Shown here: positions 1,223 to 5,932 of the stretch, piece after piece
Position numbering within the stretch: the stretch's first letter is position 1
Layout: every line of letters begins with the position of its first letter
NCBI GenBank assembly: GCA_026026165.1
Contig: JAPEUD010000022.1
Coordinates: forward strand, 186,001-250,000
Origin: Sarea resinae
Lineage: Eukaryota
DNA: 64,000 bases
Direction of reading: 5' to 3'
Made by a program: the position numbers and the translations under genes
Notes under the pieces: model-generated
Told to the model about the DNA's origin: nothing
Databases searched by the model: none
What the model saw: only the letters and a program-made list of their open reading frames with translations

Positions 1223-1614
1223 GCAAAGAGCCTTTTCGACCCCTCGTTTGGCTGGTCCCTTAGAAATCGGGAGCGCACGAAGTAGCGGTACTTGATGATG
1301 GGGATCCCGTTTGGTGGTCGGATGTGTACTCGCCCCCTCCTCCCTTCCGTCCTGTCGCCGTCTCCCATGGCTGGTCCGTGGTACCGGCTTACACATTCGC
1401 ATTTTCCTCGACCGTACTAGTACATGGACCAGCTTGCGCTTACGTGCTGGGATCCGCATGGAGCAATCGAGCCGGCTGCAATGTGATAATCTCGACCCCA
1501 AGAATTCTCCCGTTTGCCTTGGCCGACAGTAGTCGTAGAGTCTGTCGAGTAGGGTCAGTAGAGAGGGAACAATTGTTGAGGTAATCGGCCTGGTAGGAGA
1601 GACCCGAGTCGAGA
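1221..1614 (+). ncRNA. Candidate structured RNA element, family unassigned
   Basis: Several nested complementary segments (1298-1308/1449-1459, 1370-1380/1423-1433, 1490-1496/1608-1614, 1521-1526/1585-1590) with G-U pairs favouring the + strand; no credible ORF. Confidence 0.4.
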
Positions 1615-2160
1615 CTACCGTTCGATCATCTTCATCCTCCTTCTCTGCTTCTTGTTCCTCTCCTTCTTCTTCGATTTCCAATTCCATCACCTCTACCTGT
1701 GGCGTTCTAGATTGAAGGTACTCGAGTCGAGACGAGTGACCATTGATATCAACATCGTTGATCGAGCCATATCTAACGCCCTTCCCGCAATCTGATCCTC
1801 TACTTCCATCTGCACCTCGACGTCAACTCTTCGCTTCGAGCTCCCTCCAACAACGAAAATCTTCGAGACATCCTGGGTCGCTGTACGGACAGAATTACCC
1901 CACACGCCCATTGAACTGTTCCCCTCCTACTTCATTCTCTCCATACCTATCATCTATCTCCAGAACCAGCAGTCATCTGCTCGAACCTTTTAACCTTCAA
2001 TCTGTTTTCTTTCGCCTTCAGACGATCCTCCTCCCTTCCCGTCCGTGCAGTCCTTGGTGTACCAATAGCTGCAGCGGCTTCTTTGCAGCAGAAAACATCG
2101 GTTTCTGCGACTTTACCCTCGAAGACTCAAACTTTATTGGGCAAGGAAAGAATACGCAAA

Positions 2161-3444
2161 ATGCATACAGGAGTTGCCAGTAAGTGGAATGAATGCTGTC
2201 CCTTGACTGTTTGCTAATTTCCTGCAGTCATTGGTTCGGGGCCTGCTGCCCACACGGCGGCTATCTACCTCTCGAGAGCAGAGTTAAAGCGTGAGTTTCC
2301 TCGAAAGTGTGGCCTTTGGCTATAGACTGACACATTCCATAGCCGTTCTATATGAAGGTATGCTTGCAAATGGCATCGCAGCCGGTGGCCAATTGACCAC
2401 GACGACCGATGTGGAGAACTTCCCGGGTTTTCCGAAGGGCATTGGAGGGGGCGAATTGATGGTGAGTTCAGCAGCTGCAAATTTACATCGCGATGAAACC
2501 TCTTACTGATCACATCGCCTCAGGACGAAATGCGCGCCCAATCTGAACGTTTCGGTACCGAGATAATATCTGAAACCGTCTCTCGCGTCGATCTCTCGAA
2601 ACGCCCTTTCAAGTACTGGTTAGAGTATGCGGACGGTCCCGATGATGCTCCCAACACAGCAGATGCTCTCATCATTGCCACTGGTGCCTCGGCCCGCAGA
2701 CTCCATCTTCCTGGCGAAGAGACCTACTGGCAAGCTGGTGTCTCGGCGTGCGCCGTCTGCGATGGCGCAGTGCCAATCTTCAGAAACAAGCCTCTGTTTG
2801 TGATCGGCGGCGGAGACTCTGCAGCAGAGGAGGCCATGTTCTTGACCAAATATGGTAGCGCTGTCACGGTTCTGGTACGGAAAGACAAGCTACGCGCTTC
2901 CAAGACCATGGCCAAGCGGCTCTCAACCCACCCCAAGGTCAACATCCTGTACAACAGTGTGGCCACGGAAATCAAGGGCGAGAAGGGTCTGATGTCCAGT
3001 CTCGTGATCAAGAACGTCGTCACGGGTAAAGAGGAAGAGCTCGAAGCCAACGGACTTTTCTACGCCGTGGGCCACGACCCGGCCACCACGCTCTTCAAGG
3101 GCCAGATCGACACTGATGCCGATGGCTATATCCTGACCAAGCCAGGCACGAGCTACACTAGCGTGGAAGGCGTCTTTGCTGCCGGAGACGTGCAGGACAA
3201 ACGCTACAGACAGGCTATTACTAGTGCTGGTATGTATTATCTTCTCATGCGATGACATCCTCAAAGTCATCAAATCAAGTTGCTGACATATCTATTCTCA
3301 GGTTCTGGCTGCATTGCAGCCCTAGAGGCCGAGCGCTTTCTCGCAGAAGCTGACGCAGGCGTCGACAACGAACTCGAGACCGAAAATGGGGCCGAAAAGG
3401 CCAACGGCAACGTTCCCGAATATAGATCCAACCCCCTCCTATAG
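2161..3444 (+). CDS. TRR1: Thioredoxin reductase (low-molecular-weight type)
   Basis: Exons 2161-2179, 2228-2290, 2343-2461, 2524-3229, 3302-3444; motifs [30 protein letters not shown], redox [33 protein letters not shown]. Confidence 0.97.
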
Positions 3445-4342
3445 AACGACTAGAATAGATGCGTGCCTGCACAGCATAGCATTAGAACGCGAACGAGATT
3501 TTTCCTTTTGAGTTAGCGGAAAAGGCATGGCACCGGTAGACCAGAAGTCCATCTACTTTCAGATCTCTTCAAGATTAAAGTGACTAGAGAAGCAGCGGAA
3601 GAAAGCATCAGCATCTCGCGGCACGCCGCGGTATCAATCCTTTCCGTCTCTCAATCGATATATTCACGGTGCCGTCGACGGAGATGTCCCGAGTACCCAT
3701 TAGACTTATGTTGTGGCCTGTAGTTGGTCTGAGTGTCTGGTTTCTGTTCTGTTTGTTCTCCATCTGTTGTAAATAGGGTCTGAATGAACATCTTTATTCT
3801 CTTCTGAACTTCCAAGATTTTCGAACATGCCATCAGAACATCAACTCTCGTATTTGAGCAGCAGACTTTGGAACGCAACCCGACAAGTCGCTGTTGTGAG
3901 CGGCTAGCCCGATTGAGATTTCATACGACATCATGGATCCGTGGATCCATCTCAAGGGAGGTACTTTGTTCGCCGTGTCAGTTGGGTGTGATGGCCGGTA
4001 CCTTCTTTATCGACTGTCATGGACTGTCTACCCGCTTACGTACCTGGCTGGTCGACCCCGTACCTGCGCTGTAGCTCCTCCGTCAGTCTAGTTCGGCGAA
4101 CAGCTGCAGCTTCACTGACCACCTGCACCAACACCACCAACACCACCAACACCATCATTGTGTCCTCAGCCAGATTACTTAACTCTTATGTGTCAAAGGA
4201 ACATCATTAACCACAGACTGGCTACTCCTGTATTCGACATCGTCCGCAGCTGCTCTTCAACTGCACCCGGAGACGTTTGATCGCTCGCCAGCCTTTCTCT
4301 ACTGACGGTCTCCACTTGGCCACGATCGCCTCTTCGACCGCG

Positions 4343-5932
4343 ATGGACCACGACGATTTTGATAATGTGTCATGGCGGAATAATCCCGAGAGTGAAGGGG
4401 AGTCTCCAGCAATTGCCGGCATAGAGCAAGATGATGGCAGAAGTACCCGGCACGATGTCAATGGCAAGAGGAGGTTAAGCACCGAAGACCCGCAGGCGGG
4501 TCCCAATGCCGATGCCGTCGACCTGGCGGGAATAGGTGTAGATGGAAGACTGGACTGTACCGTGGATACGCCCCAGAAAGAGAACGACGGCACCAAGGAC
4601 GCTTTCGTGTCGTATTTGGTCACCACTCATGTAAGATATTTCCCGTCGGAGTGAACATACAATCAAACCCCCCATCAGCTTGAGATCTTCTTATTTGATT
4701 GTCCCGGGACGATTCCTGATTGCCCATCACAGACCGACTTCAAATCATTCCAGAAGCCCGACTTCGCGGTACGCCGCCGGTTCACCGACTTCGTTTTCCT
4801 CTACAAGACCCTCTCACGAGAATACCCCGCATGCGCCGTGCCCCCCCTCCCCGACAAGCACAAAATGGAATACGTCCGGGGTGACCGCTTCGGTCCCGAC
4901 TTCACCCAGCGCCGCGCCCATTCACTCAACCGCTTCCTCCGCCGAATGACCCTCCATCCCGTCCTGCGCCGCAGTCCGCTCCTCCTCGTATTCCTTGAAT
5001 CGCCCGAATGGAACGCTCACATGCGACTTCGCCCATCAAGGGGCTCATCCGTCTCGGACCCTACAGGTGCCGGAGCTGGCAGCAACAGCGCCTCTAGCTC
5101 CGTCTTCGACAATTTCACAGACACGTTCTTAAACGCCTTCAGCAAGGTTCACAAGCCCGATAAGCGCTTCATCGAAGTCCGTGAAAAGGCAGACAAACTC
5201 GACGAAGACCTCGGTCACGTCGAGAAGATTGTCGCCCGCGTCGCACGGAGAGAAGGCGATCTCGAAGCAGATTACAGCGACCTTGCTACCCAATTCCAAA
5301 AACTAATCAACCTCGAACCCAACGTGGAGCCAGCCATTCACTCCTTTGCCACCTCCGTCGAAGCCTCTTCCTCTGGTCTCAGGGGCTTGAAAGAGCACAC
5401 CGATCAGAATTACCTTGGCTCTCTCCGCGACATGGAAGCCTACATCGTGGCTTTAAAGGCCCTGCTCAAGACGCGCGAGCAGAAGCAACTCGACTTCGAA
5501 GCCCTGACAGACTACCTCAACAAAGCGGCCTCGGACCGTGACATCCTAGCCTCGTCTCACGGCTCCTCCTCTCTGACCGGCCCCGGTGGCTTTCTGCGGT
5601 CGAAGATCGAAGACGTCCGCGGCGTCGACCACGAACAATCCCGTCGTGAACGTGTGCGCAAGCTCGAACTCCAGATCGACAAGTTGACTCGCGAGGTCGA
5701 GGATGCAAAGAAGACGACCGAGGCCTTTGACGAGGAGGTTGTCCGAGAGGTGGCGGATTTCGAACGCATCAAGGCGACCGAGTTTAGGGATACTCTTGGT
5801 GGGCTGGCGGATGCCCATGTGGATTTCTACGGTGGCGTCATTGGCACTTGGGAGGCGTTTCTACGGGACCTGGAGCTGCAGGGTGCGGAAGAGGCGGGGG
5901 GGAGTGCGGGGGGACACGATGCTGGGGCGTAG
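4343..5932 (+). CDS. SNX4: Sorting nexin-4 / Atg24 (PX-BAR)
   Basis: Exons 4343-4630 and 4733-5932; PX motifs VSYLVTT, VRRRFTDFVFL, VPPLPDKHKMEYVRGDRFGPDFTQRRA, followed by a BAR-like coiled coil. Confidence 0.93.

Follow-up and report, generated by a model that had tools for sequence, protein, structure and literature searches.

The single thioredoxin reductase (TrxR) gene of Sarea resinae very probably gives rise to two forms of the enzyme, a minor mitochondrial form that starts at a CUG codon and a major cytosolic form that is reached by leaky scanning, as judged from the sequence of the locus and its relatives. The gene is located on the plus strand at positions 2161–3444 of the window, by which we mean the whole stretch of 64,000 nucleotides that was analyzed. 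In the mechanism that we propose, one mRNA from this gene would yield two proteins. A minority of the scanning ribosomes would begin at the CUG at 2002–2004, a weak start embedded in a strong context, and synthesize a precursor with a mitochondrial matrix presequence of 53 residues (2002–2160), which would probably be cut just before the Met encoded at 2161, leaving essentially the same enzyme within the mitochondria. Most ribosomes would leak past the CUG, encounter no AUG and begin at the main ATG (2161–2163), producing the cytosolic enzyme. An earlier note on this DNA had proposed that one gene supplies both compartments by a near-cognate start and leaky scanning, and the proposal is supported by the conservation of frame, codon, context and presequence traits across fungal classes that is described below.

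Five coding exons (2161–2179, 2228–2290, 2343–2461, 2524–3229 and 3302–3444) give a spliced translation that is exactly P0002, a protein of 349 residues with the database name thioredoxin reductase of Sarea resinae, annotated from the ATG at 2161. P0002 is about 80% identical to its top matches, which are named TrxR, and represents a low-molecular-weight TrxR of the TRR1 type, as all four motifs used to define this group (listed in PMC6416177) are present: the GXGXX motif for FAD, the CAVC redox pair (2749–2760), the GGGXXA motif for NADPH and GXFAXGDV. The C-terminal tail (3418–3444) ends with NPLL after a variable linker, as is likewise seen in 56 of 145 near-full-length TrxR proteins.

Upstream of the main ATG, the open frame is as the earlier note had described it: the TRR1 frame runs without stop or in-frame ATG from 1915 to 2161, and the CTG at 2002, in frame and 53 codons 5′ of the ATG, has a good context (ttcaat-CTG-t, with A at −3, C at −4 and T at −1). 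The composition claimed for the extension also proved correct, with 9 Arg/Lys counted and a single acidic residue. The nearest ATG 5′ of 2161 in any frame is found at 1481, with none in 1484–2160, and the region 1484–2001, which contains pyrimidine-rich tracts (GC skew −0.32 to −0.49 in 1601–2000), presumably comprises the promoter and the 5′ leader. Six near-cognate codons are in frame within 1915–2160, and the one at 2002 occupies the position that is conserved among relatives. An open frame of 82 codons could arise by chance in one genome, as another frame of the window is open for 140 codons; the conservation of the frame among relatives is, by sequence comparison, not chance. Folding of 1996–2166 gave no unusual structure (z −1.02), so that a downstream hairpin aiding initiation is unsupported. 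In the RNA run X1, which contains 0.30 of the words, near-identical contigs cover 2688–3796 with the last intron spliced, and none lies over 1746–2291.

A search of the S. resinae genome, an assembly that is possibly incomplete and of which the best candidates were scored, revealed one TrxR, the other match being a glutathione reductase. Among these best candidates of the possibly incomplete assembly, no dedicated mitochondrial paralogue of the TRR2 type with an AUG-started presequence was found.

A scan of metagenome contigs returned at least 112 loci. From the 112 listed loci we dropped 4 without an assignable main ATG, 22 duplicates, 12 yeast-like loci (classified manually, of which 8 were checked in a tree) and 2 divergent ones, which left 72 relatives in addition to the window. 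Among the matches listed, 67 of these 72 distinct filamentous-ascomycete relatives start a homologous extension with a near-cognate codon (CTG 50, ACG 11, ATT 4 and GTG 2), and with the window included the aligned codon is near-cognate in 68 of 73 listed loci (CTG 51, ACG 11, ATT 4 and GTG 2), counts that comprise 8 listed loci with the codon placed by hand. Within the 72, three loci (L030, L085 and L090) end short upstream and two basal ones (L058 and L079) have open basic frames without a single clear codon. A codon-blind anchor, scored on the FSSAFRR block (FSS..RR) alone, reached its threshold of at least 15 in 62 listed loci; the preceding codon is CTG in 48, ACG in 10 and GTG in 2 of these, and the other two are misplaced by one codon. 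CTG makes up 32 of the 282 other Leu codons of the listed extensions. Neither a synonymous codon that is not near-cognate within the DNA context of the motif nor an ATG at the position of the start codon occurs in any listed DNA locus. The listed loci are related and the counts are not independent; de-replication reduced 66 listed loci to 48 representatives, in which, among the matches listed, the codon is CTG in 38, ACG in 5, ATT in 3 and GTG in 2.

The context of the codon is conserved as well. Position −3 is A in all 48 listed representatives and −4 is C in 47, and the main ATG is preceded by a purine at −3 in 48 of 48. Position +4 is T throughout the 48 and not the favourable G, a point against the proposed start. 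The conserved initiation context corresponds to 1990–2010 of the window (C at −4, A at −3 and then TTT TCT), and 5′ of the codon the conservation in the listed representatives falls to background beyond about −12. Codon 2 of the listed extensions is TTT in 49 and TTC in 12 cases, whereas Phe elsewhere in them is encoded by TTC 104 times and by TTT 49 times; codon 3 is TCC in 53 of 68 listed extensions, and the window reads TTT TCT (2005–2010). This suggests, as far as codon usage can tell, that TTT TCC is held against codon preference and has a role at the nucleotide level beside the weak codon; the choice of TTT over TTC at codon 2 thus places part of the constraint at that level, which likewise counts against the proposed start.

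The extension is also constrained as a coding sequence. In 22 disjoint pairs of listed loci, pS is 0.355 and pN 0.100, giving a dN/dS of 0.22, compared with 1.18 in the +1 frame and 0.52 in the upstream stretch, the latter being near saturation and not a clean control. No in-frame stop occurs in the 2,885 codons of the extension in 60 anchored listed loci, which is so by construction of the anchor, compared with 67 and 47 stops in the other two frames; in an equal stretch 5′ of the codon, 37 of 50 listed loci have an in-frame stop, in four loci as near as 3–4 codons. A frame-blind motif search gave matches in 64 of 73 listed loci, the hits being 64 in frame and 1 out of frame, at 21 different distances; as the motif itself came from these loci, the informative part is the variation of the spacing by whole codons.

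The nucleotide conservation at +4 to +9, which exceeds what the amino acids need, together with AG acceptors in the open frame of the window 5′ of 2002, could be taken as a sign that the conserved CAA(A/G)CTGTTTTCC acts in regulation, as DNA or RNA, or in splicing, with an open frame that arose incidentally or is translated from an AUG in an exon further upstream. We consider this highly unlikely, because in the listed loci the middle three bases vary among near-cognate codons only, the spacing to the ATG changes by whole codons and the dN/dS is low, and a search for splice-donor patterns in window positions 1401–2161 gave no match. Further evidence against it comes from transcripts. Four listed loci (L050, L087, L013 and L024) are without introns that are present in close relatives and hence look like cDNA contigs; each contains the codon and 147–243 nt upstream of it. 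Neither L050 nor L087 has an ATG upstream of the codon, and an in-frame stop lies 3 codons 5′ of the ACG in L050; L013 and L024 have one far-upstream ATG each, which is unable to reach the extension in frame. L087 and L013, as spliced contigs, are moreover colinear with genomic relatives through the leader. This leader structure argues against an upstream AUG exon, and these four intron-free contigs, all from relatives, point to mRNA that contains the upstream codon.

The stretch between the two starts is almost devoid of ATG: the listed extensions contain one ATG in 8,655 nt where shuffles predict 87, and the upstream stretch contains 20 in 7,179 nt. Leaky scanning on a single mRNA needs an extension poor in ATG in all frames, and this scarcity counts against two transcript classes, in which the CUG would be used on long mRNAs while short mRNAs begin 3′ of it. 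Separate transcripts would need no weak codon, yet ATG takes this position in no listed DNA locus. Alternative transcription start sites do back up start-codon choice in some dual-localized genes according to Wallace et al. (PMC7049704), and even so we regard two transcript classes as quite improbable here.

In a tree of 55 listed loci and 18 named proteins, a single-gene FastTree with labels assigned by hand, the window is placed beside Xylona, and the feature is found in clades with Morchella, with Lasallia and Alectoria, with Paecilomyces and Exophiala, with Sordaria and Hypoxylon and with Hyaloscypha and Monilinia. The loci that carry it thereby cluster with Pezizomycetes, Lecanoromycetes, Eurotiomycetes, Sordariomycetes and Leotiomycetes, those closest to Neurospora and Aspergillus among the listed loci being Sordariales-like and Eurotiales-like, respectively. 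Within the tree, ACG occurs at separate points, as does ATT. The arrangement looks old within filamentous ascomycetes, with apparent switching of the codon among CUG, ACG, GUG and AUU. The earlier note had named stops or frameshifts in the leaders of orthologs as what would speak against its idea; instead, frame, codon position, −4/−3 context and presequence character are kept across the five classes. No member is more divergent than the window, whose p-distance to every listed relative is 0.41 or more, and given this divergence, its T at −1 and its unremarkable hydrophobic moment, one may ask if the signal is functional in relatives but has decayed in S. resinae. Such a decay is barely credible to us, since the window keeps the CTG, C at −4, A at −3, the FS..FRR residues, the block IAAAASLQQK, Arg at −2, the open frame and the ATG-free leader.

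Annotated proteins provide traces of the extension. The block IAAAASLQQK, encoded at 2065–2094 in the supposed 5′ UTR of the window, is carried in identical form by P0082 and in near-identical form by Lachnellula and other proteins of distant fungi. Among 146 homologous proteins, 46 have more than 12 residues ahead of the first motif, a few of them owing to intron retention or fusion. In many of the remainder, among them proteins from Lachnellula, Monilinia, Colletotrichum, Hypoxylon, Sporothrix, Caeruleum and Ustilaginoidea, the similarity begins sharply at K/T/N, followed by L/V/T/M and then FSS..RR, and the Leu encoded at 2002 in the window aligns with the L/V/T/M position; an Emmonsia gene model shows the FSS..RR onset block too. 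The annotated Met at the start of the extension in P0132, P0133, P0150 and P0408 was considered as proof of an ATG and rejected, as P0410, from the cluster of P0133, has Val there and P0389 begins with Leu. A cluster look-up contained no extended Neurospora protein, the TrxR of this fungus being annotated from the main ATG.

The extension has presequence character and is predicted to be cleavable and directed to the matrix. The 68 listed extensions are 39–82 codons long, have no Asp or Glu in their first 20 residues and contain a mean of 2.9 Arg/Lys there, and their mean hydrophobic moment is 0.67 compared with 0.38–0.40 in three controls. The window extension has a moment of 0.61, which is matched by 26% of shuffles and is hence not above them. 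In 54 of 62 anchored listed loci and in 39 of the 48 representatives, the residue at −2 from the main Met is Arg, which in the window is encoded at 2155–2157. The mitochondrial processing peptidase (MPP) recognizes sites with Arg at −2 (R-2 sites). Because of this specificity and the Arg at −2, cleavage would be expected next to the Met, and we infer that the processed product would differ little from the cytosolic enzyme.

Published microscopy has to be weighed against import into the matrix. FgTRR-GFP expressed from its native promoter in Fusarium was reported to be uniformly cytoplasmic (PMC6416177), and PMC6382746 refers to cytoplasmic TrxR in Botrytis, Magnaporthe and Alternaria. Pools of non-AUG mitochondrial isoforms are described as hard to detect (PMC6582344), and a minor mitochondrial TrxR pool could be masked in GFP images. 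The same images are compatible with a CUG-started extension that is translated but acts in the intermembrane space, elsewhere or on stability instead of as a matrix presequence; the middle block is fairly hydrophobic and shows stronger conservation than is usual for presequences, and a non-AUG extension of yeast Gpx3 is reported to direct the protein to the intermembrane space (PMC5368413). We nevertheless find a role outside the matrix unlikely, as an acid-free, Arg/Ser-rich amphipathic N-terminus with Arg at −2 is typical of matrix presequences and yeast-like orthologs have ATG-started basic extensions at the same place.

The proposed dual start of TrxR can be compared with known cases. S. 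cerevisiae possesses a dedicated TRR2 gene for mitochondrial TrxR, as the earlier note had stated, and its ALA1 and GRS1 are examples of near-cognate dual-localized synthetases. In the yeast TRR1-like locus, which we take L016 to be, the upstream frame is without likeness by eye to the Sarea extension. The clean two-gene contrast that the note drew with yeast does not stand, however, since S. cerevisiae Trr1 itself is among the 18 proteins with non-AUG mitochondrial N-terminal extensions (MT-NTE) that were tested and detected in the mitochondrial fraction by Monteuuis et al. 2019, according to the text of PMC6582344. Yeast Trr1 belongs to the same enzyme family and follows the same principle, in which a cytosolic enzyme gains a targeting signal when translation begins upstream at a non-AUG codon; it differs from the present case in that the yeast also has TRR2, whereas here a single-copy gene keeps one codon position and context across several fungal classes. 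Wallace et al. 2020 described fungal aminoacyl-tRNA synthetases of the DualNCC type, in which weak AUG and near-cognate codons interchange between lineages (PMC7049704). These resemble the TrxR gene in the single copy, the upstream near-cognate codon, the presequence and the strong downstream AUG, and differ in the enzyme concerned; thioredoxin is absent from the main text of PMC7049704 and gave no term match in its supplement. Measured against the DualNCC and MT-NTE genes, the TrxR gene has an in-frame near-cognate codon 5′ of the AUG with no stop between them, a conserved context that is favourable at A−3 and C−4 but has T instead of G at +4, an AUG-free stretch between the starts and a strong main AUG. 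The presequence properties of these groups are found in the composition, hydrophobic moment and Arg at −2 of the family, the moment of the window itself not exceeding that of shuffles.

Two further fungal systems are related in part. Ivanov et al. 2017 reported that Pezizomycotina cpc-1 has a conserved CUG, AUU or ACG in good context followed by an open frame with a dN/dS of 0.35 (PMC5487733), the same clade-wide near-cognate signature as that of TrxR; there, however, the extension belongs to a transcription factor and bypasses a uORF, and thioredoxin and mitochondria are absent from the main text of PMC5487733. In Ustilago maydis, 6-phosphogluconate dehydrogenase forms a non-AUG peroxisomal isoform (Kremp et al. 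2020, PMC7214817). This fungal redox enzyme, too, reaches a second location by a cryptic signal encoded in what is annotated as 5′ UTR, but the case concerns a PTS2, the peroxisome, a basidiomycete and an AGG-AUU start.

Filamentous fungi have one TrxR gene, which is annotated and reported as cytoplasmic. For Neurospora, a preprint (bioRxiv 10.1101/2025.04.24.650474) describes, in its available text, one TrxR without an N-terminal signal, predicted to be in the cytoplasm or peroxisome, next to a predicted mitochondrial thioredoxin; a mitochondrial reductase seems to be lacking, a mismatch that the preprint flags as unresolved. If true, a conserved CUG-started isoform would close this gap, and it would be testable by a one-base synonymous change. 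Most annotations would then miss a TrxR isoform, and experiments with TrxR deletion or promoter swaps may hit two compartments. Repeated attempts to delete TrxR failed in A. nidulans, and the text of PMC13253075 that reports this adds nothing on location; a term search of PMC7330004 gave no statement on TrxR localization. Our literature search, which covered mainly open-access work, found no report of a non-AUG mitochondrial TrxR in filamentous fungi; this is weak evidence, as reports by gene name only are easily missed and ribosome-profiling supplements may contain it. The mechanism is thus known, with yeast Trr1 as a precedent, and the conserved TrxR start of filamentous fungi appears to be undescribed.

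Other thiol-reducing enzymes of S. resinae have upstream frames of their own. In the gene of its glutathione reductase (contig C119, minus strand), a CTG in the context GTCAAA-CTG-TCT, 36 codons 5′ of the ATG, begins a presequence-like extension, and an in-frame ATG also occurs 88 codons upstream. Many Leotiomycete and Sordariomycete relatives of this protein have an annotated Met 32–39 residues upstream, and others have K-L-S or K-V-S. The glutathione reductase is an internal parallel to TrxR in the same genome, in which the length of the CTG-started extension matches that of the Met-started extensions of relatives. The gene for a canonical WCGPC thioredoxin (contig C35, minus strand) is open for about 80 codons 5′ of its ATG, without Met or acidic residue and rich in Arg, Ser and Thr. 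Close to the start of this leader lies a GTG flanked by A at −3 and G at +4; the gene is a candidate for a second near-cognate mitochondrial isoform. A thioredoxin-like protein (WCPSC; contig C64, minus strand) has an ATG-started, basic, acid-free and presequence-like N-terminus and is a possible mitochondrial partner of TrxR. With this protein and one TrxR in the same genome, a need for mitochondrial TrxR would arise. A wider idea, that in S. resinae and some filamentous ascomycetes thioredoxin reductase, glutathione reductase and canonical thioredoxin all reach mitochondria by near-cognate starts on single genes, so that the mitochondrial share of thiol-reducing capacity would be set by the weak codon that each lineage uses and would be jointly adjustable by start-codon stringency under stress, is tentative, and we would sooner doubt than adopt it.

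Yeasts show several solutions to the same problem. Among the yeast-like loci, L043, L048, L053, L067, L095 and L098 have an in-frame ATG 14–23 codons upstream, L014, L028 and L094 have a stop two codons 5′ of the ATG, and in L021 and L036 a basic frame without Met stays open for about 40 codons. In the basidiomycete Suillus lakei, the TrxR P0206 is annotated with a Met-started basic extension before a second Met, which suggests a dual-AUG solution.

At 1132–1150, about 860 nt 5′ of the CTG, the window contains overlapping TCACGTG and TGACTCA sequences, which we assume to resemble bHLH and Gcn4/CpcA sites, respectively. Judged by translation, the neighbours of the TrxR gene are presumably the end of an alpha-mannosidase-like gene (1–804), a PX-BAR sorting nexin like Snx4/Atg24 (4344–5932) and a kexin-like protease (6653 onward).
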